Shown one piece after another: positions 48,252 to 63,808 of a DNA stretch of 64,000 nt. Numbering within the stretch: position 1 is the stretch's first letter; each line of letters begins with the position of its first letter. A model generated the notes under the pieces. It was not told where the DNA came from and did no database searches. It saw nothing but the letters and a program-made list of their open reading frames with translations. This DNA is from Gemmatimonadota bacterium. Its GTDB lineage: Bacteria > Gemmatimonadota > Gemmatimonadetes > Gemmatimonadales > GWC2-71-9. Both the position numbers and the translations under genes were made by a program. The stretch covers positions 8,121-72,120 of the forward strand of contig JBGPOE010000002.1 in NCBI GenBank assembly GCA_041487875.1, given 5' to 3'.

Positions 48252-50074
48252 TGCACCCAGGCGTCGACGGCGTCGCCGTTCTTCTGGGCGGGATTCCAGC
48301 GGATGAGCTTCGCCAAGTCCAGCGCCTGTTGATTGAACGTCTCGACGTTGGACCCCGAGAACACGCGCGCTTCCATCGTCTCGCCGTCCTTGGAGACGTG
48401 CACCAGGAGAATGGCCTGGCGCGGGAAGATCGGCGCGTCGGACGGCACGGGGATGAACGTCGGCGTGAGCGGCACCGGGCGGGCATCCCAGCACATGCTG
48501 TTCTGGTTGTAGGCCGGTCCGTACTGGCCGCAGGGATCGCTGCCGCGCGGCGAATCGTCCGCCTCCTCCATCGCCACGCGCACCGTGGTGGGCAGACCCG
48601 CGACAATGGTGACCGGCCGCTCGAACGTGGCGTAGCCGGGCGCGGTGACGGTGAGTTTGTAGCTGCCGGGCTGCAGCTCGGGCTGCGCGCTGTGCGCCGG
48701 CTGGCCGTTCAAGCTGACGCGGGCCCCCTGCGGCAAGCCCTGGAGGACGAGCTTGCCGGGGGTGCCGGGCGGGAACGTCGGGTGCGTGGCGGTGTCGCGG
48801 GCGGCCGAATCGGCCGCGGTGCTGTCGCCGCCCGCGAGCAGCGCCGAATCGCGCGCCAGCTGCGAGGCGGAATCGGACGCTGGCTTGGCGCCCGACGCCC
48901 CCGCGAACACCCAGCCTTTCTTCATGGCGAAGTAGCCGCCGCCTCCTAAGATCAACGCGACCAGCGCGAGCCACGTGATCACCGCGCCGACCACCGAGTG
49001 CTTGGGGCCCGCCGGGCCGCCGGTGGTGACGCGCGGCAGCGGCGTGGTCGGCGCGGCCGACACGCGCGGGACGCCCGAGAGCGACGGCAGGGCACGGGTC
49101 GCGGCGGTCGAGATCGACATCTGCAGCGGCGTGAACGCCCCGCCCTCCACCGCCGTGACCATCTCGTCCGCCGTTTGGAAGCGATCGTCGGGCGACTTGG
49201 CCATCATCTTGCGCACGACCTGGAACAGCTCGCGCTTGTCGGGCGTGTCGAGCGCCGGCGCGGGCAGGTCCTCCATGATGTGCTTGTAGCCGATGGAGAA
49301 CGAGTCCTCGCCGTCGAACGGCACGCCGCCGGTGAGACATTGGTACGCCACGACGCCCAGCGAATAGAGGTCGCTGCGGCCGTCGAGCGACTGGGCGCGA
49401 GCCTGCTCCGGGCTCATGTAGTGGGGCGTGCCGATGGACATGCCCGTGCCCGTGAGCTTGCCGCCTGAGGCGGCCTTGGCGATGCCGAAGTCGGTGACGA
49501 CGGCCTGGCCGTGCTCGTCGAACATGATGTTGTCGGGCTTGATGTCGCGATGGACGATGCCGCTCTTGTGCGCGTAGCCCAAGGCGCGGCCCACTTGGGA
49601 CAGCACGACGCGGATCTCCCCCGGCGGCAGCGCGCCCCGTCCGGCGAGAATCGCGGACAGCGGTTTGCCGCGCAGGAACTTCATGACGAAGTAAATCACG
49701 CGGCCCGACTTGCCGACGCGGTAGATCGGGATGATGCCCGGGTGCTCGAGCTTGGCCGACGTGCGCGCCTCGCGCTGGAACCGCTCGACGAATTCCTTGT
49801 CGAAGGCGAGCGAGAACGGCAGGACCTTGATCGCGACATCGCGCTCCAGCTGCCGCTCGCGCGCCTTGAACACGATCGCCATGCCGCCGCGGCCCAGCTC
49901 GTCGAGGATGTCGTACTCCTCTTTGAGCTGCTCGCGCACCATGTCGATTTCCGTCATCTCCGGGTTCTGGTCCCGGACGGTGCTGATCGGCGTGGTGGCC
50001 GTCAGGTCCAGGCCGCAGGACCGGCAGAATTTGGCGGGATCGGGGTTCTGGGTGCCGCAGCGGGAGCAGTACAT
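48224..50074 (-). CDS. Ser/Thr protein kinase with an N-terminal zinc ribbon, one TM, and extracytoplasmic PEGA-like and TonB_C-like domains
   Basis: CSRCGTQNPDPAKFCRSCG; kinase motifs GRGGMAIVFKA, HRDIKPDN, DFG; TM ITWLALVALILGGGGYF; YKLTVTAPGYATFERPVTI; C-terminal LLVHVSKDGETMEARVFSGSNVETFNQQALDLAKLIRWNPAQKNG. Confidence 0.88.
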   Translation of the reverse strand: MYCSRCGTQNPDPAKFCRSCGLDLTATTPISTVRDQNPEMTEIDMVREQLKEEYDILDELGRGGMAIVFKARERQLERDVAIKVLPFSLAFDKEFVERFQREARTSAKLEHPGIIPIYRVGKSGRVIYFVMKFLRGKPLSAILAGRGALPPGEIRVVLSQVGRALGYAHKSGIVHRDIKPDNIMFDEHGQAVVTDFGIAKAASGGKLTGTGMSIGTPHYMSPEQARAQSLDGRSDLYSLGVVAYQCLTGGVPFDGEDSFSIGYKHIMEDLPAPALDTPDKRELFQVVRKMMAKSPDDRFQTADEMVTAVEGGAFTPLQMSISTAATRALPSLSGVPRVSAAPTTPLPRVTTGGPAGPKHSVVGAVITWLALVALILGGGGYFAMKKGWVFAGASGAKPASDSASQLARDSALLAGGDSTAADSAARDTATHPTFPPGTPGKLVLQGLPQGARVSLNGQPAHSAQPELQPGSYKLTVTAPGYATFERPVTIVAGLPTTVRVAMEEADDSPRGSDPCGQYGPAYNQNSMCWDARPVPLTPTFIPVPSDAPIFPRQAILLVHVSKDGETMEARVFSGSNVETFNQQALDLAKLIRWNPAQKNGDAVDAWVQWPFQPTRQ

Positions 50075-50132: not shown

Positions 50133-52367
50133 CTAGCGCGCCGTGATTTGGAAGCGTTGGGTGCGCGTGATGACGCGCGACCCCGCCGTGACCGTGACGC
50201 TGAGGAGATACCGCCCGCGCGGCGTGTCGCGCAGGTCGATGCCGCGGTGCACGCGGGTGATCGGACCGTCCGCGGGCGCGTCGAACTCGAGCATCACGGG
50301 CGCGCGCCGGCCGCCGAACAGTCCCGTGATCGCCCCGAAGAACGAGCGCCCGCCTTCTCTTTCGAGCCGCACCACCGTGTGCATCGCTGCGCCGCGCTCC
50401 ATGCCGTACACCTCGTAGTACAGCTCCGCGGCGCTGCCCTGGGGGAAGCGCCCCAGCGGGTTGAGCAGCACAGTATCGCCCGCGGCGCTCCAGAAGAGGC
50501 CCGCACCCCGGCGGCCGAGCACCAGATCGCTCGCGGCCACCACGGAGCCGTCCAGCTGCTCGACCGTGACCGAGTCGCCCAGGACCACGTCGCCGCCCGC
50601 GCTGTCGGGGGTGTTTACGAGCAGGCGATAGCGGTAATCGCCGGGCGGCACCGGGACGGCGAGCTGGCCCGTGAGATACGCGTCGCCGCCCAGCGGCTCG
50701 CGAGCGTGGAACAGGCGCGCCGTATCGACCCGCGCGACCAAGCGGTCGGCCGTATCGGAGACGAGCAGCCGGAAATGCAGCGGGTACACCACGCCGTCCC
50801 CGACCACCGCGCGGCCGGCGAGGCGGTCCGCGGGCACCGCGAACACGACGTGCAGCGCCTGGCCCGTGCCGGTGCCGTCGCCCACCACGAAGTCGCGCGT
50901 GACGAGGCCCAGCGAGGCGTCGAAGCGTTGGCGATAGCTGTCGGTGGTGGTGCCGATCGCGATACTGCGCTGACCCGCCCGCCGCTCCTCGGCGAGCGCC
51001 GTGCCCTGCGCCGCCGTGCCGTGGCTGATGCGCATGTACAAGGGCCCGAACAGCTCCCGCGAGGAGTACAGGTCGGACACCGAAGCGAACGTGCCGCTGG
51101 GCGCCACCACACCGCCCGCGAAACCGAACACGTCGACGAGACTCTCCACCAGCTTGTAATCCTGATTGTGCTCACGCGCCACGAAGTGGAACACCAGGTC
51201 GCCCTCGGGCCGCAGGTACAACCAGCTCTCGTTGGGCTCGACCCCCGGCTTCTCGTAAAACGCCCGCCGATCGGGCTCGCCGTGTCGCAGATAGATGACG
51301 CCGCGGTCGTCGAACTCGCGCTGCGCGGTGCGGTAGACGTCGGTGATGTCGTAGTGGCGGTGACGGCTCGGCAAACGGAAATGCTCGCGCACGTAGAACC
51401 AGCGGCGATAGTGCTCGGCCAGCCGCTCACCCGCGTCGCGCGCGTCGGCCGCGTCGCGGCGATCCCAGAACGGCTCCAGCCAGGCGACGCGCCCCGCGCC
51501 GCCCGCGAGCGTGTCGAAGGTGGCGAGATCCGCGGGGGTCGCCAGCCAGCTCACGTCGTCGCGGTACGCGGCCCGCGCTTCGCCGCTCTGCGCCGCGCGC
51601 GCACCCGCGTAGTACCAGCGCGCGCCGTCGGTCGAGCGCCCCGCCTTGTAAGCGGTGCGCGCGAGCTCGAGGTAGCCCACGCCGGAGTCGCCCCCCAACG
51701 CGAGGTATGCCTGAAATCCGACGAGCGCGGAGTCGGCGTCGCCCACCTCCCGCTCCACCCGGCCGCGCATCATCTGCAGCGCGGGCCGGGCCCCCGCGGG
51801 CGATGTGGCGGCCTGACGCACCGCTGCGAGCGCCACGTCGAGCCGCGGGCCGATCCGCTGCGACAGCGCGGTGGTGGCGAGATCGACCGTCGCCTGCGCG
51901 AACGACGGATCGGCCATGGCCGCGCGCGCGAACGCGTTCGCCGCCTTCGACAGATAATCCTTGTGCAGCCACTGCTGCAGATTTTCGACCACGGGGCTCG
52001 GATTCTCCCCCACGGCGAGCTGGGCCGTGCCGAGACCGTACCAGGGATACGGCCAGCCGGGCTGGAGCTCGCTCGCCCACTCGAACTCCCCGGACGCGTC
52101 ATCGAAATGCGACTTGGCATTGCCGACCTCACCCAGGCGGTACGCGATGAACCCGAGCCGCAGGTGCAGCAGCGCGTTGTCGCGATCCACCTTGGCGAGC
52201 GTGATGGTCGCCTGCTCGAGCCGTCGCAGAGCGAACGAGTCGGTGACGCCGCCGAGCGAGTCGCGCAGCTGCTCGATCGCCGCGCGCTCGGCCGGCGCCT
52301 GGGCGGTCAGGCGGGCTGGCGGGCTCGCGGCCAGCAAGACCAAGAAGATCACGGTGGCGGTGCGCAT
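50133..52367 (-). CDS. Secreted TPR plus GWxTD-domain protein
   Basis: Signal peptide MRTATVIFLVLLAASPPARLTAQ. N-terminal TPR-like helices. The GWxTD-family core is FWDRRD...HYRRWFYVREHF...DDRGVIYLRHGEPD...PNESWLY. Confidence 0.65.
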   Translation of the reverse strand: MRTATVIFLVLLAASPPARLTAQAPAERAAIEQLRDSLGGVTDSFALRRLEQATITLAKVDRDNALLHLRLGFIAYRLGEVGNAKSHFDDASGEFEWASELQPGWPYPWYGLGTAQLAVGENPSPVVENLQQWLHKDYLSKAANAFARAAMADPSFAQATVDLATTALSQRIGPRLDVALAAVRQAATSPAGARPALQMMRGRVEREVGDADSALVGFQAYLALGGDSGVGYLELARTAYKAGRSTDGARWYYAGARAAQSGEARAAYRDDVSWLATPADLATFDTLAGGAGRVAWLEPFWDRRDAADARDAGERLAEHYRRWFYVREHFRLPSRHRHYDITDVYRTAQREFDDRGVIYLRHGEPDRRAFYEKPGVEPNESWLYLRPEGDLVFHFVAREHNQDYKLVESLVDVFGFAGGVVAPSGTFASVSDLYSSRELFGPLYMRISHGTAAQGTALAEERRAGQRSIAIGTTTDSYRQRFDASLGLVTRDFVVGDGTGTGQALHVVFAVPADRLAGRAVVGDGVVYPLHFRLLVSDTADRLVARVDTARLFHAREPLGGDAYLTGQLAVPVPPGDYRYRLLVNTPDSAGGDVVLGDSVTVEQLDGSVVAASDLVLGRRGAGLFWSAAGDTVLLNPLGRFPQGSAAELYYEVYGMERGAAMHTVVRLEREGGRSFFGAITGLFGGRRAPVMLEFDAPADGPITRVHRGIDLRDTPRGRYLLSVTVTAGSRVITRTQRFQITAR

Positions 52368-52404
52368 CGCTATTCCATTATACCCGGCCGCCCGCGAGCG
52401 TTCG

Positions 52405-55197
52405 TCAGAAATCCGAGGAGAACCCGAGATACACCTGCAGGCGGCGCGGTCCACCACTCGGCAACGGCGCGAGCGGTTCGGCCACGCCCAGCCGCAGGCG
52501 CAGCGGCAGATCGTAGCTGATCGTCACGTCGCTCACGAGCTCCGCCCCGGCCGACGCGATGTGCGCGAGGCGCGGTCGCGCGCCCGGATCCCAGGCGTCC
52601 CCCGCGTCGCCGAACAGCGAGAGCGAGAACTTGTCCGCACCCAACGGCAAGTGACCCACGCCCTTCCCCACGAGCGCAAGCGGCAGGCGGTACTCGACGC
52701 TCGCGGTGGCGGCGCGCCGGCCACGCAAGGCGCCAGCCCCATACCCGCGCACCGGGAAGGCCCGCGCCGTCCCGACGCTCCGCCCGAAGCCCACGTCGAG
52801 CGCGCCCGACGACACGCCGCCCACGCCGAGCAGCGTCGGCAATGGGCCCGCGGTGGCCCCGGCAGCGAGGCGCAGCGCGAGCACCGAGTGCGCGAACCCA
52901 CCCAGGCCCGGCGCCGGCAGGTACAGACCCAGCCGCCCGCGCGCCTCGTTGGACCACTCGCCTGAACCCTGGCGCTCGCGGCGCCGCACCAGCGCCACCA
53001 GGGAGAAGCCGTTCTGAGCCGATATCGACAGCGGCCCGGCGAACGCGCGCGCCAGCCCGAGGCTCACCGAGCCCCCCACGAGATCGCGATCGGCGCAGCC
53101 GACGCACACGGCGACCAGCGGCGTGTCGGGCTCCGCCACGAAGCGCCGGCCTTCGAATTCCCCCGCCACGCGCAGGCTCACGGCGGTACGCCAGCGCTGC
53201 CGCACGAACGTGGCGCCCACCGCCGCGTCCTGAGTGCGCTCCGACACGCTGGCGACGGCATTCGACCCGATGAACGACCAGTCGCTCGAGGCCGACACGT
53301 CGAGCGTGGGATTCCCCAGGCGTTGATCGATCAGCGTGAAGGCGCCGGCAGCGCGTCGCGTGCCGGGCGCCACCAACGCCTCGAGGACGTAATAGTTGCG
53401 CGCGAGCGCGTCGGAGCCCGCCGTGACGGCGCCCACGAACGTCCCGGCGCCGCTCGTGCTGAGCAACGCCGGCACCCAGAAGTGCGGCCGCAGGGACGGC
53501 CAGGCGCTGTACCCCGTCTCGCGCGCCGGGACGGCGGGCGCCGTGTCGAACGGCGCGGGTGTGGTGCCGGGCTCCGCGGCGGCAGCGAGCGGCGTCGCGC
53601 GGCGCAGCTGCCAGCCGCGCGCGCCGAGCGTGGCGTACAGGATCGTGCCGTCCACGAGCGACGCGGGATGCCGCGCGCCCGCCGGGTCGGCGGTGAGGCG
53701 CACGGCGCCCGAGTCGGTCCAGCGGTATACCTGCGCGAGGCCCGTCGGGTCGGCGACGAAGAGCAGCGCGCCGTCCGCCGTCCACGCCGGATCGGTCACG
53801 ACTCCTGCCCGCTCGAACAGCACGACGCTCGAATCAGGCGCGTGCGCCGGCCAACGCACCAGCGCCCAGTGGCCAGCGGCGTGACGCGAGGCGGCCACCC
53901 AGCGCCCGTCCGGCGACGGCACGATCGCGCCCCAGGTCGTGCCCGGTGGATCGGGCACGCCGGGAAGCGTGGGGCGGTTGTCGCCGGCCCCGATGGCGAC
54001 GGCGGACACTACGCCAGCGGCCGCGTGCGGCTCGGTGAGGCGCGCGTCGTGCGTGGTGCGGCGCCACGCGCCGTCGGGCGTCCAGCGGTAGAGATCCGAG
54101 CGGGCGCGCCAGCGCGACGTGAAGTCGAGCTGCGACACGACGAGCGTGTCGCCCAGCCAATCGGCGCTGGCGAGCGCATTGACGAGGTGGCGCCGCAGCG
54201 GCCGCCCCGTGGCGCCGTCCGCGACCACGAGCGCACGCGGGCCCTTGCCGTCATCCTGCACGAAGGCCACGCGCCGGCCGTCGGGCGACGCCTGTGGATT
54301 GGGCATGGTCCACAAGCCGTCCGCCAGCAGCGCGCCGCGCGGCCCGTCGGGCGGCGGCGCGGCATCGCGCGTGGCGCGGCGCCAGTCGGCGCTCAGGTCC
54401 GCGGTGGCGTCGGCATGACGCAGCTGGCGTCCCACGCGATACGGAATGGTCTGCGCGGCGGTGGCCTCGACGAACCGCGGGATCACCGAGTCGCCGCGCG
54501 CGCGCGCCACGTAGGCAAAGAACCGGCTGCCGTAGGCGTACGGCATCTCGCCGTCGGGCCAGCGCGTGAACAGCAGCGCGTCCCACGGGCGGCGCGACGT
54601 GCCGCCCCCGCGCTCGGCGCCGAGCAGCGCGGTATGATAGCTGCCGGTGACACGCCCGCCCGCGGTGAGGCGCGATTCGTAATAGACCGCGAGTCCCTCG
54701 ATCACCCAGCTCGGCTGATACGCGTTGGGGAACAATCCCGGCGCCCGGCCGAACACCCGCTGCAGCCCGCCCCAGAAGCTCGCGCTCCGGTCCAAATGGA
54801 AGACGTGGGTGAGCTCGTGCGTGATCACCAGACGCAGCCAGTCGTCGTAATGCTGGAGGGCGGGATCGAGGGCGGGGGGCGCCAGCAGCACGACGATGCG
54901 GTTGGACGGGAAGACGCTGGTGAAGCCGTTGGCCGCATCGACGTCGTCGGACAGGGTGAGGTCGATGGTGCCGCGGGGAGCGTGCAGCTCGCGCGCCAGC
55001 AGCCCGTAGGCGCGCTCGGCTTCGCGGGCGGCGTCCCCCGCCACCGCGCGGAGCGCCGGCCGGAAATGGAGGCGGAAGTGTGCGGTGTGCAGCGTGCGCC
55101 AGGGACCCGCAGGGTCCTGGGCGCGGAGCGGCCGGGGGAGCGACGCGACGAGCGCCAGCACCCCGAGCGCGGACGTGATGAGCGTCACCCGTCGCAT
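52405..55197 (-). CDS. Outer-membrane fusion protein: MA-clan zinc metallopeptidase, PD40/TolB-like beta-propeller and C-terminal beta-barrel
   Basis: Signal peptide MRRVTLITSALGVLALVASLPRPLRAQ. HELTH at 54805..54819 with a downstream WVIEGLAVYYE. Repeated SPDGRxVA-type blades. The C-terminal region has alternating hydrophobics and ends LGFSSDF (terminal Phe). Confidence 0.7.
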   Translation of the reverse strand: MRRVTLITSALGVLALVASLPRPLRAQDPAGPWRTLHTAHFRLHFRPALRAVAGDAAREAERAYGLLARELHAPRGTIDLTLSDDVDAANGFTSVFPSNRIVVLLAPPALDPALQHYDDWLRLVITHELTHVFHLDRSASFWGGLQRVFGRAPGLFPNAYQPSWVIEGLAVYYESRLTAGGRVTGSYHTALLGAERGGGTSRRPWDALLFTRWPDGEMPYAYGSRFFAYVARARGDSVIPRFVEATAAQTIPYRVGRQLRHADATADLSADWRRATRDAAPPPDGPRGALLADGLWTMPNPQASPDGRRVAFVQDDGKGPRALVVADGATGRPLRRHLVNALASADWLGDTLVVSQLDFTSRWRARSDLYRWTPDGAWRRTTHDARLTEPHAAAGVVSAVAIGAGDNRPTLPGVPDPPGTTWGAIVPSPDGRWVAASRHAAGHWALVRWPAHAPDSSVVLFERAGVVTDPAWTADGALLFVADPTGLAQVYRWTDSGAVRLTADPAGARHPASLVDGTILYATLGARGWQLRRATPLAAAAEPGTTPAPFDTAPAVPARETGYSAWPSLRPHFWVPALLSTSGAGTFVGAVTAGSDALARNYYVLEALVAPGTRRAAGAFTLIDQRLGNPTLDVSASSDWSFIGSNAVASVSERTQDAAVGATFVRQRWRTAVSLRVAGEFEGRRFVAEPDTPLVAVCVGCADRDLVGGSVSLGLARAFAGPLSISAQNGFSLVALVRRRERQGSGEWSNEARGRLGLYLPAPGLGGFAHSVLALRLAAGATAGPLPTLLGVGGVSSGALDVGFGRSVGTARAFPVRGYGAGALRGRRAATASVEYRLPLALVGKGVGHLPLGADKFSLSLFGDAGDAWDPGARPRLAHIASAGAELVSDVTISYDLPLRLRLGVAEPLAPLPSGGPRRLQVYLGFSSDF

Positions 55198-55289
55198 AGG
55201 CGCGCAAGCTACTGTCTCCCCTTTCGACCCGTCAATTTCACCAATAGATTGGCGTACCTTTACTTGGGCTTCGTGAGGTTCCCCCATTC

Positions 55290-56357
55290 ATGACGACCTG
55301 CCAGTACTGCGGCCGCGCCAATGAACCCGGCGCGCAGTTCTGCATGGATTGTGGCAAGCCGCTCAGCAAGGAAGCGGCAGCCATGAAGAAGGCCGCCGCA
55401 CCGCGCGCGTCGGCCGGCCCGGGCGCGGCCGTGCCCGGCACCCAAGTCCTCTCAGCCCCCGCCGCCGCGCCGACGGACGCCCCCGGGACCGCGCCCTGTC
55501 CGTTTTGCAACGAGCCGGTCAACGGCAACCTGCCCTACTGTCCGCACTGCGGGCGGCGCCTGTCGGCGCCGGGCTCGGGGCCGGCCTGCGCGCGCTGCGG
55601 CTCGCCGGTGACTCCCGGGACCAAGTTCTGCGCCACCTGCGGAGCCACCCTGGGCGACATCGCCGCCCCCGCGCTGCAGCGGCCCTCATCGCAGCCCGCG
55701 CCGCGCACCGATTTTTCGTTCGTGCTGGTCCAGCTCGACGACGCCGGCCAGCCGCGCCAGCGTTTCGAGCGCAAGAGCACCGACACGACCATCGGCCGGC
55801 TCGACGGCGACATCCGCTTCCCCGAAGACCCGTTCCTCTCGCCGCTGCACACCCGCCTGTCGTGGGAAGATCAGCAGCTGGTGGTGCGCGACCTCGGCAG
55901 CCGCAACGGCACCTGGGTCTTCCTCGATGCACCCTACCGGCTGATGGACGGCGACCTGCTGCTCGTCGGCTCGCAGGTGCTGCGGTTCCGCCGGCTCGGC
56001 TATCCCGGGCCGCACGCACCCGAGGCGGACGCCACCAAGCGCATGGGCAGTCTGATCCCGAGCGCCGACATCGCGAGCCTCACGCAGCTGCGCTCCGACG
56101 GCAGCGCGCGCGACGTGATCCATCTCTCGCCCGGCCGCGACGTGCTGATCGGGCGCGAACAGGGGGACTGGCTCTTTCCCTATGATCCCTCGATGAGCGG
56201 CCGGCACGCGCTGATCCGTTCCGAGGACGCCGACTTCGTGGTGCTCGACGCCGGCAGCCGCAACGGCGTCGCCCTCGCCGCGCGGGGCGCGATGCCGCTC
56301 AAGCACCAGTCCAAGCTGCTGGTCGGCGACAAACTCATGCGCCTCGAGCTGCCGTGA
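55290..56357 (+). CDS. Triple zinc-ribbon plus double FHA-domain protein
   Basis: CQYCGRANEPGAQFCMDCG, CPFCNEPVNGNLPYCPHCG and CARCGSPVTPGTKFCATCG. Two FHA cores (TIGRLDGDIRF...SPLHTRL...DLGSRNGT and LIGREQGDWLF...SGRHALI...DAGSRNG). Confidence 0.85.
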   Translation: MTTCQYCGRANEPGAQFCMDCGKPLSKEAAAMKKAAAPRASAGPGAAVPGTQVLSAPAAAPTDAPGTAPCPFCNEPVNGNLPYCPHCGRRLSAPGSGPACARCGSPVTPGTKFCATCGATLGDIAAPALQRPSSQPAPRTDFSFVLVQLDDAGQPRQRFERKSTDTTIGRLDGDIRFPEDPFLSPLHTRLSWEDQQLVVRDLGSRNGTWVFLDAPYRLMDGDLLLVGSQVLRFRRLGYPGPHAPEADATKRMGSLIPSADIASLTQLRSDGSARDVIHLSPGRDVLIGREQGDWLFPYDPSMSGRHALIRSEDADFVVLDAGSRNGVALAARGAMPLKHQSKLLVGDKLMRLELP

Positions 56358-57952
56358 AGCTCTGCCCCGTCTGCTCCACGGAATTTCCGTACGACGTGAA
56401 GTTCTGTCCCAACGACGGCGCTACCCTGCGCTCGGCGTCCCCGATGTCCGATCTCGTGGGCCAGGTGGTGGCCGACCGCTACCACGTCGTGAAGAAGCTG
56501 GGCGAAGGCGGCATGGGGCAGGTCTACCTCGCCGAGCACGTGAAGATGGGGCGGCGCAGCGCCATCAAGGTGATGAACCCGTCGATGGTGCACGACCCCG
56601 ACGCGGTGGCGCGGTTCAACCGCGAGGCATCCAACGCGAGCCGCATCACCCACCCCAACGTCTGCGCCATTTACGATTTCGGCGAAACGCCCGAGGGGCT
56701 GATCTACCTCGCGATGGAATACATCGAGGGCGAGCCGCTGACCGACCTGCTGCACCGCGAGGGGGCGCTCAAGGTGCCGCGCGCCGTGCACATCTTCCGC
56801 CAGGTGGCCGACGCCCTGCAGGCGGCGCACGATCTTGGCATCGTGCACCGCGACCTGAAGCCCGACAACATCATGCTCACCAAGACGCGCGGCGGCGCCG
56901 ACATGGTGAAGGTGGTGGACTTCGGCATTGCCAAGGCCGTAGGGGGCGACGAGTCCGGCCAGAAGGTGACCAAAACCGGCCTCGTGGTGGGGACGCCGGA
57001 GTTCATGAGTCCGGAGCAGCTCTCGGGCGACAAGCTGGACGGCCGCAGCGACTTGTACTCGCTGGCACTGGTGTTCTACAAGATGCTGACGGGGCAGCTG
57101 CCGTTCGAGGCCGACACGGTCCAGGAAACGATGATCAAGCGCCTCACCGACGAGCCCGCCAAGCTCGCCGCGCTGCGGCCGGATCTGCCGTTCCCGCCCG
57201 GCCTGCAGGAGGTGCTCGACAACGCGCTGGCCCGCACGCCGGTGGACCGCTACCAGACGGTCTCGAAGTTCTCGCAGGACGTGGCGAGCGTCACCGGCGT
57301 GAGCACGGCGACCACGGCGGTGCCCGCGACCCGATCGGACGTCACGAGCGACAAGACGCAGCTGCTCGATGCGTCGGCCACGAAAGCGATCCCTGCGAAG
57401 CGGGCCGGCGCCAAGGCGGCGCCCGCCACGCGCGGCGCGGCGTCCGAGAAGAAGCGCTCGCTCGTGCCGATGGTGGGCGGCGTGGTGGCGGTGCTGGCAC
57501 TGGGCGGCGGCGCATGGGCCGTGTTCGGCCACAAGACGCCACCGGCCAACGGCGCGCAGCGCCCGGCCGACACGACCAAACAGGTCACCACAGTGCCCCA
57601 CGACACGAGCAAGACGCAGCACGCGTCGAAACCGCCGAACAACACGACCAATCCCGGTACCTCCGCGACGGCGACGCAACATCGCGTGGACCCGGCGAAG
57701 GCGGCGGACGCGCTCGACGCGCTGACCGATCTGGTCGACCGCGATCCAGCGGCTGCGCGTGACTCAGCCACCGTCTTGTACGAGGCGGCGTCAGTGGCCA
57801 AGACCGACAAGGCCATGGCGGCGTTCGTGATCGCGAACGCGTTCTGGAAGCTCGGCAATCGTCCGCAGGGCTGCACGTGGATTCGGCGCGCCCAAACCCT
57901 CGATCCCGCGACGCCGACGTTCACCACCGTCGCCACGTCGCAGTGCCAATAG
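56354..57952 (+). CDS. Ser/Thr protein kinase with an N-terminal zinc ribbon, one TM and a small helical extracytoplasmic domain
   Basis: GTGA-coupled to the upstream gene. CPVCSTEFPYDVKFCPNDG; GEGGMGQVYLAEH, HRDLKPDN, DFG; TM LVPMVGGVVAVLALGGGAWAVFG. Confidence 0.88.
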   Translation: MKLCPVCSTEFPYDVKFCPNDGATLRSASPMSDLVGQVVADRYHVVKKLGEGGMGQVYLAEHVKMGRRSAIKVMNPSMVHDPDAVARFNREASNASRITHPNVCAIYDFGETPEGLIYLAMEYIEGEPLTDLLHREGALKVPRAVHIFRQVADALQAAHDLGIVHRDLKPDNIMLTKTRGGADMVKVVDFGIAKAVGGDESGQKVTKTGLVVGTPEFMSPEQLSGDKLDGRSDLYSLALVFYKMLTGQLPFEADTVQETMIKRLTDEPAKLAALRPDLPFPPGLQEVLDNALARTPVDRYQTVSKFSQDVASVTGVSTATTAVPATRSDVTSDKTQLLDASATKAIPAKRAGAKAAPATRGAASEKKRSLVPMVGGVVAVLALGGGAWAVFGHKTPPANGAQRPADTTKQVTTVPHDTSKTQHASKPPNNTTNPGTSATATQHRVDPAKAADALDALTDLVDRDPAAARDSATVLYEAASVAKTDKAMAAFVIANAFWKLGNRPQGCTWIRRAQTLDPATPTFTTVATSQCQ

Positions 57953-57954
57953 CC

Positions 57955-58983
57955 ATGTTCGGACGCTCCTCCAACCCCAAGCCCATCCGGGTCCGCGTCT
58001 TCGGCAAGACGGATCTCGGCAAGACGCGCGACCACAACGAGGACTGCTTCCTCGTGGCCGACCTGACGCGCGGCGACGCGTCGCTCCAGCCGACCGTGCG
58101 CGAGCACGAGGTGGGCGAGCGTGGCACCCTGCTGGTCGTGGCGGATGGCATGGGCGGCGCGGCGGCGGGCGAAGTCGCGAGCGACATGGCGACCAAGACG
58201 ATCTACGAGCAATTGATGAAGAGCTGGGGCGCGGAAACGGAGCTCACGGCGCAGCGCTTCGCCGCGCGCCTCAAGGAAGCCGTGGAGACCGCCAACGGCC
58301 ACATCCACGCGTACGCCAAGGCGCACCCCGAAGTCCGCGGCATGGGGACTACCACGACCGCCGTGGGCGTGCTGGCCGATCACCTCTATCTCACGCAGGT
58401 GGGCGACAGCCGCGCGTATCTGGTGCGCGACGGCGTCGCCGTGCAGCTCACCAAGGACCAGTCGCTGATGCAGCGGCTGGTCGAGGCGGGCGAGCTGACC
58501 GAAGAAGAGGCGGCGCAGAGTGAGCGCCGCAACATCATCCTCCAGGCCTTGGGCCCCGATCCCAAAGTGAAGGTCGATCTCACCTTCCAAGATCTGCGCC
58601 GCGGTGACGTGCTGGTGCTCTGCTCCGACGGGCTGTCGGGCCTCGTGAAGAAGGAAGAGATCGCTGGCGTCGCCGGCAAGGAACCGGACCTGGCCGTGGC
58701 CTGCGAGAAGCTGATCGCCCTCGCCAACGACCGCGGCGGCCCGGATAACATCACGGTCGTGATTGCGCGGTTCGAGGGCGACGGCCTGCCCGCCGACACG
58801 CCCGACCCGGCCGGCCACCAGGTCTATCCCTTGATCGACACCGAGACGAGCACGGAGCCCGTGCCGGTCTACAAGGGCAGCAAGGCGCCGGTGCCGGCGC
58901 GGCGCGCGCGCGCCCGCTGGCTCACGGTGCTGCTGCTCGCGGGCGCGGGGGCGGTGGCCCTCTATCTCGCGCTCGTCCGGTGA
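57955..58983 (+). CDS. PP2C-family Ser/Thr phosphatase with a C-terminal TM anchor
   Basis: KTDLGKTRDHNEDCF, VADGMGG, DRGGPDNITVV. The C-terminal helix is WLTVLLLAGAGAVALYLAL. Confidence 0.88.
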   Translation: MFGRSSNPKPIRVRVFGKTDLGKTRDHNEDCFLVADLTRGDASLQPTVREHEVGERGTLLVVADGMGGAAAGEVASDMATKTIYEQLMKSWGAETELTAQRFAARLKEAVETANGHIHAYAKAHPEVRGMGTTTTAVGVLADHLYLTQVGDSRAYLVRDGVAVQLTKDQSLMQRLVEAGELTEEEAAQSERRNIILQALGPDPKVKVDLTFQDLRRGDVLVLCSDGLSGLVKKEEIAGVAGKEPDLAVACEKLIALANDRGGPDNITVVIARFEGDGLPADTPDPAGHQVYPLIDTETSTEPVPVYKGSKAPVPARRARARWLTVLLLAGAGAVALYLALVR

Positions 58984-60371
58984 AGGCGCAGTTCAAGTTC
59001 CTCTCGGGCGCACGCGCCGGTGAAGTCGAAGCCTTCGGCAAGGCGTACATCGGCGTCGGACGGCACCCACTCTCCGACGTCCGCTTCGACGCCGAGCGCG
59101 ATCTCGACGTCTCGTCGCGGCACGCGTCAATCACGCGCGGGGCCGGGGGGTTCGTGCTCAAGGACTTGGGCAGCAAGAACGGCACGTTCGTCAACGGCAA
59201 GCGGGTCGCGGCCGACGTCCTGCTGCGGGACGGCGACATCATCGCCTTCGGCGACAAGGGCCCGGCACTCGAGTTTCACGTAGTCGACGCGGGCGAGGCG
59301 GCGCCTTCCGAGGCCGGCGCCGCCGATCTCGCCCGGCGCTCCTCGGCGCCGCGAGAATCGTTCGCCGCGAGCGCCGCCCCCGCCCCCGCTCCCGTCGCCC
59401 CGCCCCGTCGCTCCAGCACCGCCGTCCGGTTCGCGCAGGAAGTCGCCCACCTCCGCCGCACCACGAAGCTGCTGTTCGGCGCCTTGGTGCTGGCGTTCGC
59501 GCTGTTCGGATTCCTGCAATGGAAGGGCGGACGCGACCGCGCGCACGACCGCGCGCAGTTCCAGAACCAGCTGCAATCGCTCAACGACGCGTTGACGCAG
59601 TCGCGGCAGGAGGTTTCGCGGCTGGATCGCGAGCTCGTCGCGGCGAGCCGCGTGGGGGACGATTCGACCCTGACGCGCCTTCGCGCCGAGCTCGACGCCG
59701 CCGAGCACCGCTATCGCAGCATCGTCGGGGCGGCGGCGGTGGATTATCGCGGCATCAGCCAGAAGAATCAGGACGCCGTGGCGCTGGTGCTGGTGGATTT
59801 CGGTGCCAGCGAGGTATTCAGCGGCACCGCGTTCGCGGTGGACTCGCAGGGGACCTTGGTCACCAACAAGCACGTCCTGGTGGGCGAAGAGGCCGACCGC
59901 ACGCCGCAGCGCATCGCGGTGAAATTCTCTGGCTCCAAGCAGTGGTTCCCAGGCCGCATGGTGGGCGTCTCCAGCAAGTGGGACCTGGGCGTCGTCAAGG
60001 TCGACATCAAGGGGGGCGTGCCGCGCGTCGCCGGGATCGCCCGGGAGGCTCACGCCGTGCAGCGCGGTGATCCCGTCGCCATCATCGGCTTCCCGCTCGG
60101 CGTCGACTTACCGATGGAAGGCGGCCAGGGGGTGAACGCCGTCGCCGATCCCACCCTCACCGCGGGTACGGTGAGCAAAGTGCTCGACAGTCTCGTGCAG
60201 GTGGACGGATACGGCGCGCCCGGCTCTTCGGGCAGCCCGATTTTCGACCGCGACGGCCGCGTCGTGGCGGTCTTGTACGGCGGCAACCGGGAGTCCGGCG
60301 GCAAGATCATCTTCTCGATTCCGGCCTACTTCGTGGTGGATTACCTCAAGTCGCTCAATCTGCTGAAATAG
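58980..60371 (+). CDS. FHA domain, TM, coiled coil and trypsin-like (S1) serine protease fusion
   Basis: GTGA-coupled to the upstream gene. FHA core (GVGRHPLSDVRF...SSRHASI...DLGSKNGTFVNG). TM LLFGALVLAFALFGFL. Protease triad contexts TNKHV, WDLGVVKV and GAPGSSGSPIF. Confidence 0.82.
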   Translation: MKAQFKFLSGARAGEVEAFGKAYIGVGRHPLSDVRFDAERDLDVSSRHASITRGAGGFVLKDLGSKNGTFVNGKRVAADVLLRDGDIIAFGDKGPALEFHVVDAGEAAPSEAGAADLARRSSAPRESFAASAAPAPAPVAPPRRSSTAVRFAQEVAHLRRTTKLLFGALVLAFALFGFLQWKGGRDRAHDRAQFQNQLQSLNDALTQSRQEVSRLDRELVAASRVGDDSTLTRLRAELDAAEHRYRSIVGAAAVDYRGISQKNQDAVALVLVDFGASEVFSGTAFAVDSQGTLVTNKHVLVGEEADRTPQRIAVKFSGSKQWFPGRMVGVSSKWDLGVVKVDIKGGVPRVAGIAREAHAVQRGDPVAIIGFPLGVDLPMEGGQGVNAVADPTLTAGTVSKVLDSLVQVDGYGAPGSSGSPIFDRDGRVVAVLYGGNRESGGKIIFSIPAYFVVDYLKSLNLLK

Positions 60372-61770
60372 CGCGCGCCGCCGCGCGCTGCATGACTCCG
60401 TCTCCTCCCCACGCACACAACACCGGTACGCGCCCCGGGATCTGTGCCGCGAGCCGCGGATGGCCGAACAGCACCACCAGCGCCGCACCGGGCAACCGCC
60501 GCCGCAGCGCGGCGCGTGAACGGGCGCTCAAGTCGGCGTGGCCTTTCCAGGAGAGGGGATTGGCGAAGACGGCGATGATGCGTGTGCCGTTCTCTGTTAT
60601 CCGTCGCCCGCGACTGTGCAGCTCCCCGGCAAATACGTCGCGCGGGCCGACGGTGTAGGGTCCGCCTGCGTCGTCGTCCACCACCGCGACGCGCAGCGCG
60701 GCGCCGAGTTTCGGTTGCTCGCCGCGCACCCACCGTAGCGTCCGTTGCGCCAGCTGATCGGCGAAGAGGGCGTTGGCGGCCAAGTCGACGTCCCTGTCCC
60801 CTGTCCCCCTTCCCCATTCCCCGATTGTCCGCTCGTAACGCGCCAAAGCCTCGTCCGCCCTGGCGGATGAGATCTCCTTCCCGACGGCCGCGTCGAGCGC
60901 AGCGATCACGGCGGCGAAATCTTCGGGATAGAGCAACCCGTCGCAGCCCGCGGCCACCGCCGCGACCGTGGCCGGCGCCTCCGCTTGCGCGGCGGTGGCG
61001 CCACCCATGATCAGTGCGTCCGTCACCACGAACCCGGAGAAGTTGAGCGGGTCGCGCAGGTATCCGAGAATTGTTGGTGAGAACGCCGCGGCCCGGCCGC
61101 TCGAGTCCCAGCCGGGATAGGCGACGTAGGCGGCCATCACGCTGCCCACGCCCGCGCCGATCGCGGATTCGAACGGCCCCAAATCCGTGGCGGCGAGCGC
61201 GGCGAACGGCGTGGCGACGCGCGGCACGGTGGCGTGGGAGTCCTGGATGGTGCGACCGTGCCCCGGATAGTGCTTGGCACAGGCGAGCACGCCGTGCTCC
61301 TGGCAGCCGCGGATCCACACGGCCGCCTGCTCCCCCACCCGCTGTGGGTCCGCGCCGAACGACCGCGTCTGGATGATGGGATTCTCGGGCTCCACGTCGA
61401 GGTCGCATACCGGCGCGAACGCCCAGTTGAGTCCGACGGAGAGCGCTTCGCCCGCCGTGATGAGCGCCGCGGCGTGCGTGGCGTCGAGGTCGTCCAAGGC
61501 ACCGAGGGCCGCGGGTGGCGGCAGCTCGGTGAGTCCGCGGACCTGCTGGCCGGCGCCGCGCTCCAGGTCCGCGCCGATCAGCAAGGGCCGGCCCGCCTGC
61601 GCCCGCAGGTCGGCGGTGAGTGCCGCCACGGCGTGGCGCGTCCCGCCGAACGCAATGAATCCACCGGCGCCCGCCGCGAGCGCGCGGTCGATCTTCTGCC
61701 GCTCGTGCGCAAACGATCCCCGGCGCCACCGCAGCGCTGGGAAGACGAGCCGTGCCAGCGACGTGGTCAC
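60355..61770 (-). CDS. nagZ: Glycoside hydrolase family 3 beta-N-acetylhexosaminidase (NagZ-like) with a C-terminal extension
   Basis: IGADLERGAGQQ, AKHYPGHGRT, FSGFVVTDAL. At 471 aa it is longer than typical NagZ. Confidence 0.8.
   Translation of the reverse strand: MTTSLARLVFPALRWRRGSFAHERQKIDRALAAGAGGFIAFGGTRHAVAALTADLRAQAGRPLLIGADLERGAGQQVRGLTELPPPAALGALDDLDATHAAALITAGEALSVGLNWAFAPVCDLDVEPENPIIQTRSFGADPQRVGEQAAVWIRGCQEHGVLACAKHYPGHGRTIQDSHATVPRVATPFAALAATDLGPFESAIGAGVGSVMAAYVAYPGWDSSGRAAAFSPTILGYLRDPLNFSGFVVTDALIMGGATAAQAEAPATVAAVAAGCDGLLYPEDFAAVIAALDAAVGKEISSARADEALARYERTIGEWGRGTGDRDVDLAANALFADQLAQRTLRWVRGEQPKLGAALRVAVVDDDAGGPYTVGPRDVFAGELHSRGRRITENGTRIIAVFANPLSWKGHADLSARSRAALRRRLPGAALVVLFGHPRLAAQIPGRVPVLCAWGGDGVMQRAAARAISAD
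60791..60825. repeat. Heptamer array inside nagZ (minus-strand reading GGGGAAT GGGGAAG GGGGACA GGGGACA)
   Basis: Read directly. It encodes GEWGRGTGDRD in the NagZ C-terminal extension. Confidence 0.8.
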
Positions 61771-62885
61771 AGCGGCGTGATGCGGCCCAGCACCCGTGGC
61801 CCCCGCGCGCCCGTGGCCGCGGGGAGATTGCCGGGCGAGCCTGCGAGCGTGAGAAGCCCGAGAAACGCGAACGCGACCGCCTCTTTGGCGTCGCCGTCGA
61901 AAAACAGCTGATCGAAGGAGAGCACGGGCCGCGGTCGTACGCGGGCGGCAAGTGCCGTGACGAGCACCGGATTACGCGCGCCGCCGCCCGAGATCACGAG
62001 CTCGGCGTCCGCGGGCGCGGCGGTGAACTGCTCGATCGCCCGGGCGACGGATTCGACCGTGAGCGCCGTGGCCGTCGCCACGGCGTCGTTTGCGGACCCG
62101 CCGCCGGCGCGCACCTGCGCCAGCAGCCGCTCCGCGTACTCAAGGCCGAAGCGCTCCCGACCCGTGCTCTTGGGCGGGCGAGCCGCGAAGTACGGGTCCG
62201 CGAGCAGGACGTCGAGCACCCGTGTCACGGGCCGGCCACGCCGCGCGCGCTCGCCGTCGGTGTCGTACGACGCATCCGGGTCGATCGCCCGCGTCACGGC
62301 GTCGATGATGGCGACACCCGGGCCGGTGTCGAACGCCAGCGCCCCGGCGGTCTCGCCGCGCCGCGGCACCCAGGTCACGTTCGCCATGCCGCCCAGGTTC
62401 AAGAGCAGGCGGCCGCGCTCGGGATGGCCGAACAGCATCACGTCGGCGAGCGGCACGAGCGGCGCGCCCTGCCCGCCCGCCGCCACGTCACGCGCACGGA
62501 AGTCGCTGATCACCCGCACGCCCACCCGTTCGGCAATCACCGCGGGGTCGCCCAGCTGGAGCGTGGCCTTTCCCGGCTCATGCCAGATCGTCTGGCCGTG
62601 CGACGCCACGAACGCGACGGCCGGCGGCGCCGTCTTCGCCTTGGCCAGGAGCTGCAGCACCGCGCCCGCGAAGCGCTCGCCTAAGGCCACGTGCAACAGC
62701 GCCAGATCTTTGGCACCGCCGCGCGCGATCGCCTCGATGATCTGGCCGCGCTCGGCCGCGGCGTAGGGTTCCTGATGGAAGGCGACGAGCCGGGCGGTGG
62801 GGCCCTCACTCAACCGCACCAGCGCCGCCGACACGCCGTCCAGCGACGTGCCGGACATCACGCCGACGGCGAGCGTCTCCGTCAC
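61767..62885 (-). CDS. anmK: Anhydro-N-acetylmuramic acid kinase
   Basis: The GTG start overlaps the murQ stop (GTGA). VGVMSGTSLDGVSAAL, NLGGMANVT, and GGGARNPVL near the C-terminus. Confidence 0.88.
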   Translation of the reverse strand: MTETLAVGVMSGTSLDGVSAALVRLSEGPTARLVAFHQEPYAAAERGQIIEAIARGGAKDLALLHVALGERFAGAVLQLLAKAKTAPPAVAFVASHGQTIWHEPGKATLQLGDPAVIAERVGVRVISDFRARDVAAGGQGAPLVPLADVMLFGHPERGRLLLNLGGMANVTWVPRRGETAGALAFDTGPGVAIIDAVTRAIDPDASYDTDGERARRGRPVTRVLDVLLADPYFAARPPKSTGRERFGLEYAERLLAQVRAGGGSANDAVATATALTVESVARAIEQFTAAPADAELVISGGGARNPVLVTALAARVRPRPVLSFDQLFFDGDAKEAVAFAFLGLLTLAGSPGNLPAATGARGPRVLGRITPL

Positions 62886-63808
62886 CGCTGCACGGGAGGC
62901 GGATCGCCCACGGCGCGGCGCACGAATCCGCCCGCGGCGTCGAGCAGGCGGCGCGCCTCGACACGATCCACGCCGCGGCGCGCCATCACGATGGCGAGTT
63001 TCACCGACCCCGCGGCGGACTCGATCGCGCGGCGGGCGGTGGCGCGATCCACGGCGCAGCACTCCATAACGATGCGCTCGCCGCGGTCCTTCAGTTTGTC
63101 GCTCACCGCCAGGAGGTCTACCATCAGGTTGCCGTAACAGCGGCCCAGACGGATCATCGCGCCGGTGGTGAGTGTGTTGAGGACGAGCTTGGTGGCGGTG
63201 CCCGCCTTCATACGGGTCGAGCCGGTGAGGACTTCGGGGCCCACGAGCGGCACGATCAGGACGTCGCACGTGTCGGCCAGGATCTTGGGCGGCGGGGAGC
63301 AGGACACGAGCCCCGTGGCGGCGCCGAGCGTTTGCGCGCGCCCCAGCGCCGCCCGTACGAACGGCGTGGTGCCGCTCGCGGCAATTCCGATCACGACGTC
63401 TTTCGCCGTGACGCGCTGGGCGTCCATCGCCGCGGCGCCCGCGTTGACATCGTCCTCGGCGCCCTCGGCGCTCTTTACCATGGCCGCATAGCCGCCGGCG
63501 ACGACGCCCACCACCAGCTCCGGCGGCGTGCCGAAGGTAGGCGGGCACTCCGCCGCGTCCAGCACGCCCAGCCGCCCCGACGTGCCGGCGCCCACGTAGA
63601 TCAGCCGCCCGCCACCCTGCAGCCGTGCGACGATGAGATCCACGGCCCGCGCCAAGTCTTCGCGGACGCCGTGCACTACGTCGGGCACGGTTCGATCCTC
63701 GGCGTTGATCGCGTCCACGATCTCGAGGCTCGACGCGACGTCGATGCGCTCGGTGCGCGGATTGCGTTGCTCGGTGAGGCGCGGATCGTGAAAGTCGGGG
63801 GTGCGCAT
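62882..63808 (-). CDS. murQ: N-acetylmuramic acid 6-phosphate etherase
   Basis: LTEQRNPRTERID, GAGTSGRLG, SIS-domain body. Confidence 0.9.
   Translation of the reverse strand: MRTPDFHDPRLTEQRNPRTERIDVASSLEIVDAINAEDRTVPDVVHGVREDLARAVDLIVARLQGGGRLIYVGAGTSGRLGVLDAAECPPTFGTPPELVVGVVAGGYAAMVKSAEGAEDDVNAGAAAMDAQRVTAKDVVIGIAASGTTPFVRAALGRAQTLGAATGLVSCSPPPKILADTCDVLIVPLVGPEVLTGSTRMKAGTATKLVLNTLTTGAMIRLGRCYGNLMVDLLAVSDKLKDRGERIVMECCAVDRATARRAIESAAGSVKLAIVMARRGVDRVEARRLLDAAGGFVRRAVGDPPPVQR

Follow-up and report, generated by a model that had tools for sequence, protein, structure and literature searches.

A four-gene operon

We analyzed 64,000 nucleotides of DNA from a Gemmatimonadota bacterium (GenBank assembly GCA_041487875.1, contig JBGPOE010000002.1, positions 8,121 to 72,120 of the forward strand). 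We call this whole stretch the window, and coordinates are given in the window unless they carry a locus number. Our subject is the gene at 58980-60371 (+), whose product, here called the FHA-protease, joins an FHA domain to a trypsin-like serine protease domain by way of one predicted transmembrane helix. It is the last gene of a translationally coupled operon of four:

55290..56357 (+), gene 1: soluble protein of 355 amino acids with two zinc ribbons and two FHA domains (Pfam FHA, DZR, Zn_Ribbon_1)
56354..57952 (+), gene 2: Hanks-type Ser/Thr kinase of 532 amino acids (Pkinase, E=4.3e-51)
57955..58983 (+), gene 3: PP2C-type Ser/Thr phosphatase of 342 amino acids with a C-terminal transmembrane segment at residues 323-341 (tail anchor)
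58980..60371 (+), gene 4: FHA-protease of 463 amino acids, with FHA domain, linker, transmembrane helix, stalk and S1 protease domain; GTG start, stop codon at 60369-60371

Genes 1 and 2 overlap by GTGA at 56354-56357, a 2-nt gap (57953-4) separates genes 2 and 3, and genes 3 and 4 overlap by GTGA at 58980-58983 (cc-GTGA-ag), where the GTG of the FHA-protease shares three bases with the TGA stop of the PP2C. This last overlap was already described in the original prediction, a reading of the DNA letters made without database searches, and it is found as described. There is no plus-strand terminator-like site inside the four-gene block; the scan gave one minus-strand terminator-like site. It gave no sigma-70-like promoter, as one would expect from the phylum and the GC content. 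The start of the PP2C gene needed a choice. The mechanical open reading frame from GTG 57877 (368 amino acids) would share 76 nt with the kinase gene, and we use instead ATG 57955, which lies 2 nt past the kinase stop and is backed by the NCBI call and by homolog alignments.

In gene 1, Pfam FHA matched two stretches (E=1.4e-19) next to DZR and Zn_Ribbon_1. No transmembrane segment was found in its product, which is a candidate cytoplasmic adaptor or substrate. The kinase has an N-terminal zinc ribbon, the kinase domain, one transmembrane segment (373-391) and a C-terminal ectodomain of ~140 residues. The phosphatase scored 236 bits against the NCBIfam Stp1/IreP PP2C model (cut-off 230).

The genome is ~70% GC, and long spurious open reading frames are plentiful in every frame. 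We are nevertheless confident that 58980-60371 is a real gene and not a chance reading frame because it has at least 1547 homologs, the gene call is identical in NCBI assembly GCA_041498915.1, and the N-terminus MKAQFKFLSG is common to all aligned homologs.

Architecture of the FHA-protease

We divided the protein using Pfam, a hydropathy scan and an AlphaFold2 model built on 31 homologs (mean predicted local distance difference test score, pLDDT, 74.9). The parts and residues used below are these:

58980..59285 (+), residues 1-102: predicted cytoplasmic FHA domain (Pfam FHA, AlphaFold2 beta-sandwich)
59286..59459 (+), residues 103-160: Ala/Pro-rich disordered linker (AlphaFold2)
59460..59522 (+), residues 161-181: single transmembrane helix (hydropathy)
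59523..59777 (+), residues 182-266: predicted periplasmic helical stalk (AlphaFold2 helices, heptad tests)
59778..60371 (+), residues 267-463: predicted periplasmic HtrA-like S1 protease domain, no PDZ (Trypsin_2)
59061-59063, 59112-59114, 59121-59123 and 59178-59180: predicted phosphothreonine contacts R28, S45, H48 and N67
59871-59873, 59982-59984 and 60228-60230: catalytic triad H298, D335 and S417
59409-59432 (+), residues 144-151: juxtamembrane motif RSSTAVRF, nearly invariant in close homologs
59454-59468 (+), residues 159-163: juxtamembrane motif RRTTK, nearly invariant in close homologs

The Pfam FHA match (PF00498) covers residues 26-91 (E=1.1e-18, 67.9 bits against a gathering score of 20.7), and Trypsin_2 covers residues 282-431 (E=5.8e-21, far over its gathering score). 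The hydropathy scan gave exactly one hydrophobic segment, 161-179/181, LLFGALVLAFALFGFL, with a Kyte-Doolittle value of 1.97. In the model, residues 1-102 form the FHA beta-sandwich, the linker has pLDDT<50 over 109-153, and the protease fold is confident over 267-458. Between them AlphaFold2 placed three helices, at 150-225 (passing through the transmembrane segment), 228-253 and 256-266, which give ~85 helical residues in 182-266. Heptad periodicity is significant in 182-225 (p=0.0015) and 228-253 (p=0.009), and one register running over the G-D-D break at 226-227 was not found.

The order given in the original prediction, an FHA domain, an Ala/Pro linker, one transmembrane helix and then an S1 protease, is confirmed. 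Its motifs TNKHV, WDLGVVKV and GSSGSP were also read correctly, and we could assign them to H298 (TNKHV), D335 (KWDLGVV) and S417, the nucleophile, which is the second Ser of GSSGSP. Its coiled coil of about 70 residues fared less well. There is a helical stalk and it has heptad character, but it consists of three helices with the register broken at 226-227, and a single continuous coiled coil of that length is not supported.

Conservation of the functional residues

We followed the functional residues in a close and a distant set of homologs. The close set held 31 sequences at 62-90% identity. For the distant set, an HMMER search of 1.84 billion cluster representatives returned 303 clusters at E<=1e-30, of which we examined the best 150; 139 were full-length and had 33-62% identity to the window protein. 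H298, D335 and S417 are invariant in the close set (31/31), and so are G27-R28, S45-x-x-H48 and N67-G68-T69. Among the 139 distant representatives the triad His and Ser are present in every one, and the Asp in 133, with Glu in five more. The phosphothreonine contacts are kept nearly as well (R28 in 137, S45 in 138, H48 in 139 and N67 in 138). In nearly all of the 139 the FHA and protease domains are also separated by just one hydrophobic segment.

The motifs GR, SxxH and NG are the conserved phosphothreonine contacts of FHA domains (PMC1262709). All three are present in the window protein, and phosphothreonine binding is predicted from them. By these residues the protein has a competent-looking protease and a competent-looking phosphothreonine reader, predicted to lie on opposite sides of one transmembrane helix.

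Topology

We applied the positive-inside rule over 140 family members, taking 15 residues on each side of the transmembrane segment. The equivalent segment scores at least 1.6 in 135 of the 140. The net charge is +3.0 on the N-terminal flank and +1.0 on the C-terminal flank, with the N-terminal flank exceeding the C-terminal one in 115 members and falling short of it in 10 (Wilcoxon p=4e-19). Because the segment spans the membrane once, the FHA domain and the protease would be on opposite sides. The phosphothreonine chemistry should be cytoplasmic because the kinase catalytic domain precedes the kinase's own transmembrane segment and the PP2C is tail-anchored, and this would put the FHA domain inside and the protease outside. 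The flank charges and this logic together favour an FHA domain in the cytoplasm and a protease outside it. The kinase ectodomain was detectable in 108 loci; a Cys pair in it that could have served as a periplasmic marker is kept in just 58 of these and is absent from the type VI secretion clade described below, and we did not use it as evidence.

The original prediction would have been given up had the protease been placed in the cytoplasm or the triad varied among orthologs. The charge bias (115/140 members, p=4e-19) points to the other side of the membrane, and the triad is conserved in both homolog sets, the 31 close and the 139 distant. The wider setting, with four genes in the operon, a family spread through the phylum and a sister clade in type VI secretion clusters, was not part of that prediction.

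The protease domain

The best sequence matches in the PDB were to M. tuberculosis HtrA1 (E=2e-13). Foldseek gave the catalytic domains of DegP, DegQ, DegS-deltaPDZ and human HtrA1, with E-values of ~2e-14 and TM-scores of ~0.8 normalised to the target. Pfam found no PDZ domain in the FHA-protease, and the chain stops at residue 463, five residues past the last protease helix. Among the NCBIfam HtrA/DegP/DegS models the best score was 53.3 bits against a cut-off of 470 (NF047968), and the DegS models gave 19-20 bits against cut-offs >400. We therefore rejected membership in the canonical HtrA/DegP/DegQ/DegS group (MEROPS S1C), as the protein lacks a PDZ and scores far under the cut-offs. The MarP family (NF033740) scored 39.8 bits against 250, and its four N-terminal transmembrane helices are not present. 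The protease domain is HtrA-like in its catalytic fold and lies outside the canonical HtrA family.

Distribution and co-inheritance

The FHA-protease gene was found in species-representative genomes of 148 species, and the best 80 of these 148 are all metagenome-assembled genomes (MAGs) of Gemmatimonadota. We took the taxonomy of the family from named NCBI matches; ten distant cluster members that we looked up carry only generic names. All members with a name belong to Gemmatimonadota, and a search with a profile built from the most divergent ones likewise brought up only names from this phylum (Gemmatimonadales, Gemmatimonas sp., Longimicrobiaceae). The family is phylum-wide in Gemmatimonadota and ancient within it.

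For genome context we used 166 loci with flanking DNA (numbered L in our census), and the denominators that follow are the loci where the gene in question could be seen. In 135/138 loci the protease gene is immediately preceded by the PP2C gene. The cassette includes the kinase in 101 of 106 loci, and in the other five a kinase lies just past the distance cut-off. The zinc-ribbon/FHA gene is upstream in all 91 of the loci outside type VI secretion clusters that had enough flank. This near-obligatory co-inheritance with the kinase and the PP2C strongly supports a phospho-dependent link.

One MAG, SMAG_U4508, holds two copies of the window type (L008 and L070, on contigs DASYRJ010000033.1 and DASYRJ010000132.1) with different downstream neighbours. 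Both are ~59-61% identical to the window protein, and they could be true paralogs or a mixture of strains in the bin.

A sister clade in type VI secretion clusters

In the most divergent lineages the FHA-protease is found in a type VI secretion system (T6SS) cluster. The gene order is tssK-tssL-tssM, a small lipoprotein-like open reading frame, the kinase, (the PP2C) and the FHA-protease last (L082:1-9422, L083:1-10080, L084:31-10107, L088:923-11944, also L089-L092). The lineages include a complete genome of 5.8 Mb, a Longimicrobiaceae MAG and a Gemmatimonas MAG, and a CsgG-like gene is convergent downstream in six of the eight loci. The eight copies are monophyletic in a neighbour-joining tree of 166 sequences and are 37-38% identical to the window protein.

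The T6SS-linked kinase is 50-57% identical to the kinase of the window operon and 36-41% identical to a second kinase in the window (48224-50074), and the T6SS-linked PP2C is 52% identical to that of the window. Because the T6SS-linked kinase and PP2C are closest to those of the operon, we take the cassette of kinase, (PP2C) and FHA-protease to be one unit used in two contexts. The window copy itself is not a T6SS gene. When TssK/L/M and the small open reading frame from L082-L084 were used as tblastn queries against the 64 kb of the window there was no match, and the window copy falls in the clade outside T6SS clusters.

The small open reading frame between tssM and the kinase (L082:5498-6031, L083:5031-5549, L084:5680-6246) encodes 172-188 amino acids. 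It has no Pfam match, a lipobox-like N-terminus (…TPAC, …VVSSC, …SLPAC) and ~50% identity between genomes. A TssJ-like lipoprotein peculiar to these T6SS clusters is one candidate identity.

There is a precedent for control of an envelope machine by a Ser/Thr kinase, a PP2C and an FHA protein in the threonine phosphorylation pathway of T6SS, which consists of the kinase TagE/PpkA, the PP2C TagG/PppA and TagH/Fha1, and in which FHA binding to phosphothreonine licenses assembly of the machine (PMC13584744, PMC3953482). Another factor encoded in T6SS clusters and needed for T6SS, TagX of Acinetobacter, is an inner-membrane-anchored periplasmic L,D-endopeptidase of peptidoglycan that is thought to remodel the envelope locally (PMC13584744).

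Flanking genes

Downstream of the operon and convergent to it is a trio of peptidoglycan-recycling genes on the minus strand (60355-63808):

60355-61770 (-): NagZ-like glycoside hydrolase of family GH3 (161 bits, under the cut-off of 207)
61767-62885 (-): AnmK (429 bits against a cut-off of 387)
62882-63808 (-): MurQ (382 bits against a cut-off of 168)

The 3' ends of the GH3 and FHA-protease genes overlap by 17 nt (60355-60371), and in 61/110 loci AnmK/MurQ lie no more than 3 kb away from the protease gene. We regard the cell-wall link as no more than a lead because the cell-wall genes are on the opposite strand and only partly conserved.

In other genomes a gene of the Amidase_3 family (N-acetylmuramoyl-L-alanine amidase-like, ~660 amino acids) is divergent and just upstream of the zinc-ribbon/FHA gene, in 19 of 26 loci with enough flank. 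Examples are L086:4258-6243, L087:4125-6013 and ~19 metagenome loci (e.g. L097, L100, L105); the gene is absent from the window. This neighbourhood recalls the PknB-CwlM-FhaA link of mycobacteria.

Upstream of the operon the window has three further genes of interest:

48224-50074 (-): second Ser/Thr kinase, 616 amino acids, with a zinc ribbon, Pkinase, a weak PEGA match and TonB_C
50133-52457 (-): conserved protein of 774 amino acids carrying a GWxTD domain (TIGR04514 at 32 bits, cut-off 28)
52405-55287 (-): conserved protein of 960 amino acids with a signal-peptide-like N-terminus and a sub-threshold PD40 repeat match

The second kinase is syntenic upstream of the operon in many Gemmatimonadales loci, and the other two genes sit between the two kinases. 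The 960-residue protein ends in …GFSSDF, which resembles the signature of an outer-membrane beta-barrel.

Proposed mechanism

We regard it as roughly an even bet that phosphothreonine made by the kinase recruits or activates the periplasmic protease through the FHA domain. In this model the FHA-protease would be a bitopic inner-membrane protein and the output of a self-contained four-gene phosphosignalling operon. The membrane Ser/Thr kinase, with its own periplasmic ectodomain, would phosphorylate a cytoplasmic threonine, for which the candidates are the kinase itself, the zinc-ribbon/FHA-FHA adaptor or T147 in the protease's own linker, and the tail-anchored PP2C would remove the mark. The FHA domain would dock on the phosphothreonine, and docking would recruit or cluster the FHA-protease or re-orient the helix that runs through the membrane into the stalk. 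HtrA proteases work as trimers, and here the PDZ-less protease domains would form an active oligomer at a defined site in the envelope and cleave periplasmic substrates. In the clade of the window the target would probably be related to the cell envelope or peptidoglycan, and in the sister clade to type VI secretion. The architecture, the conserved active residues, the topology bias, the operon and the co-inheritance are observed; the phospho-dependence, the direction of signalling, the oligomerisation and the substrates are the parts that we infer.

HtrA-type proteases are normally off until an accessory domain switches them on, as in DegS and DegP. Because this protein has no PDZ while HtrA-type proteases normally need an allosteric switch, some other control of the protease is expected, and FHA is the only other folded domain in the chain. 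The AlphaFold2 helix 150-225 runs without a break from the juxtamembrane residues across the membrane and on into the stalk, which makes it a plausible transmission element in the model. Within RSSTAVRF, T147 may be a phospho-acceptor in cis, or the motif may be a structural juxtamembrane element. The pattern R-x-S-T-x-x-R-[IV]-A occurs in 77 of the 150 representatives, 70 of these with the +3 Arg, and the core [ST]-T-x-x-R-[IVL] is in four of six divergent type-A copies that we checked. The candidate site is reminiscent of the self-binding phospho-switch of GarA/OdhI.

Several observations weigh against this mechanism. The core [ST]-T-x-x-R-[IVL] is in none of the eight T6SS-clade copies, and the T147 motif has Arg at +3, which is not known as a typical FHA preference. 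The stretch from the transmembrane helix to the protease varies from 6 to 189 residues across the family, which argues against a rigid transmission rod. Sending a signal through a single transmembrane helix is mechanistically demanding, and simple localisation may be all that happens. AlphaFold2 confidence is low in parts of the FHA domain and in the first part of the stalk. The assignment of sides comes from charge statistics and logic, and the window protein taken by itself gives no clear answer, since each side of the membrane has four K/R among its 15 flanking positions. Finally, synteny with the oppositely oriented cell-wall genes holds in only about half of the loci.

Alternative explanations

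One alternative is that the FHA domain is only a scaffold, which tethers a constitutively active housekeeping protease beside the kinase complex or the T6SS membrane complex with no allosteric phospho-control. A single transmembrane helix is a poor conduit for allostery, and the original prediction had itself allowed for a role in positioning the protease. Many bacterial FHA proteins are also recruiters and not switches, for example TagH/Fha (PMC13584744). The expectation that something must stand in for the missing PDZ counts the other way, and there are hints of something beyond passive tethering in the conserved juxtamembrane motif and the continuous helix. We think a pure scaffold rather unlikely, although it is the likeliest of the alternatives. 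The architecture is also symmetric as to direction, so the signal could run from outside to inside. The protease domain would then bind or cleave misfolded envelope proteins or peptides, and a shift in the availability of the FHA domain would modulate the kinase/PP2C pathway, for example by shielding phosphothreonine from the PP2C. HtrA proteases are the textbook sensors of envelope stress, and the second, soluble FHA protein could be the true output of the pathway. However, the kinase already has a conserved ectodomain that could do the sensing, and the strict conservation of the triad means that catalysis matters and not just binding. The position of the gene at the end of the operon is typical of an effector, which is a weak argument. 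We consider an outside-in sensor improbable.

Two further readings seem to us far less probable than that. One is that both domains act on cytoplasmic phosphoproteins, with the hydrophobic segment a buried or peripheral helix or the protein inserted N-out. The balanced flank charges of the window protein would allow this, but a hydrophobic segment of at least 19 residues is kept in 135 of the 140 members together with the positive-inside bias of the family, and a segment that spans the membrane puts the two domains on opposite sides. An FHA domain also needs phosphothreonine made by the kinase, whose catalytic domain precedes its transmembrane segment, and the closest structural relatives of the protease are extracytoplasmic HtrA proteases. 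This makes a cytoplasmic protease very improbable. The other is a mobile anti-phage or conflict system, in which the kinase would sense infection and the protease would be the effector. PADLOC did match the kinase to PD-T4-6 (E=1.5e-95) and the protease domain to RT-Protease_XI (E=8e-13). These matches reflect generic similarity between kinase and trypsin domains, and no multi-gene system was recognised. Across the phylum the locus keeps its synteny beside housekeeping genes and is vertically conserved, no match covering at least 80% of the FHA-protease turned up among 72,556 plasmid and 50,697 phage records, and the protease faces the periplasm by the charge bias of the family. We give the defense reading almost no weight.

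We return, then, to the mechanism in which kinase-made phosphothreonine acts on the protease through the FHA domain. To our knowledge, the outputs of bacterial Ser/Thr kinases are cytoplasmic (enzymes, transcription factors, and division or secretion scaffolds), and the regulated periplasmic proteases that we know of (DegS, DegP, MarP) are switched by periplasmic cues. If the mechanism is true, a cytoplasmic phosphothreonine reader with an intact periplasmic protease would be an "inside-out" route for controlling envelope proteolysis. A wider proposal, which we hold tentatively and would not call probable, is that this is a new class of Hanks-kinase output, in which cytoplasmic phosphothreonine is read by a bitopic protease across the membrane. 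In the T6SS clade it would take the place of the soluble TagH/Fha and add a TagX-like peptidase role, by which the secretion machine would be licensed to pass or to assemble, and in the clade of the window the cassette would have been redeployed for envelope or peptidoglycan turnover. In either form the concept extends known modules and is not a new principle. The family is large (~300 clusters at 50% identity) and belongs to an abundant and poorly studied soil phylum. R28, S45, T147 and S417 are direct handles for mutagenesis, and in the T6SS sister clade there is a phenotype that can be assayed (Hcp secretion, killing), with the FHA-protease as a T6SS accessory gene of a new type.

Comparison with known systems

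We found no characterisation in the literature of an FHA-protease fusion, its operon or its association with T6SS. Database labels for family members are generic ('S1-C subfamily serine protease', 'FHA protein/V8-like endopeptidase'). The sole published mention that we found of a fusion of FHA and a trypsin-like domain is in a 2008 survey, which listed the FHA-FHA-Trypsin protein NP_811686.1 of Bacteroides thetaiotaomicron as a singleton architecture and did not characterise it (PMC2605481). We compared that protein by description only; it has two FHA domains and is from another phylum. The cytoplasmic FHA-transmembrane-periplasmic class, membrane-anchored S1 proteases, and triads of Ser/Thr kinase, PP2C and FHA protein are already known, and the fusion is uncharacterised rather than unseen.

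The triad brings the operon close to the T6SS phosphorylation pathway. In both a Hanks kinase, a PP2C and an FHA reader are encoded together, and in the sister clade they directly follow tssK-tssL-tssM. Unlike the FHA-protease, TagH/Fha is soluble and cytoplasmic and has no protease, and the window copy lies outside a T6SS cluster. We rejected identity with TagH/Fha1 (TIGR03354) on a score of 32.4 bits against 120.25 and the lack of T6SS context in the window. TagX shares the inner-membrane anchor and the periplasmic peptidase domain, which makes it a functional analogy for the T6SS-linked clade, but it is a non-homologous VanY-family metallopeptidase that lacks an FHA domain and is not known to be linked to phosphorylation. 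The FHA-protease also looks like a TagH/Fha to which a periplasmic peptidase arm of the TagX kind has been added. A 2026 review of T6SS accessory genes has no protease and no FHA-protease fusion among its accessory factors (PMC13584744).

A cytoplasmic FHA or FHA-like domain, a single transmembrane helix and a periplasmic portion are also the layout of YscD/EscD (type III secretion), GltG (Myxococcus gliding) and FhaB/FipA, whose periplasmic parts are structural and not enzymatic. GltG and FipA gave weak NCBIfam matches to the window protein, and Pfam Yop-YscD_cpl (PF16697) gave 40.1 bits against a gathering score of 33.2, overlapping the stronger FHA match, which has the same fold. We rejected a ring protein of the YscD/EscD type because the periplasmic part is a protease and the gene sits among a kinase, a PP2C and cell-wall genes. 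The FHA domain of YscD is also not known to have a phosphothreonine pocket, whereas this pocket is fully conserved in the FHA-protease.

On the protease side, MarP (Rv3671c) of M. tuberculosis is likewise a PDZ-less chymotrypsin-fold protease at the outer face of the cytoplasmic membrane. It differs in having four transmembrane helices, where the window protein has one, and no FHA domain. MarP activates the peptidoglycan hydrolase RipA under acid stress and is thus a precedent for an S1 protease that controls cell-wall enzymes. DegS of E. coli has an N-terminal single transmembrane anchor followed by a periplasmic protease domain with the HtrA fold, as the FHA-protease is predicted to have. 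DegS is an inner-membrane-anchored signalling protease and not a bulk degradation enzyme, and it is switched on in the periplasm when its PDZ binds the C-termini of outer-membrane proteins. The window protein has no PDZ and carries instead an FHA domain of ~100 residues, predicted to be cytoplasmic, and a helical stalk of ~85 residues. By analogy, the FHA-protease would work most like a DegS in which the periplasmic PDZ sensor has been swapped for a cytoplasmic FHA sensor.

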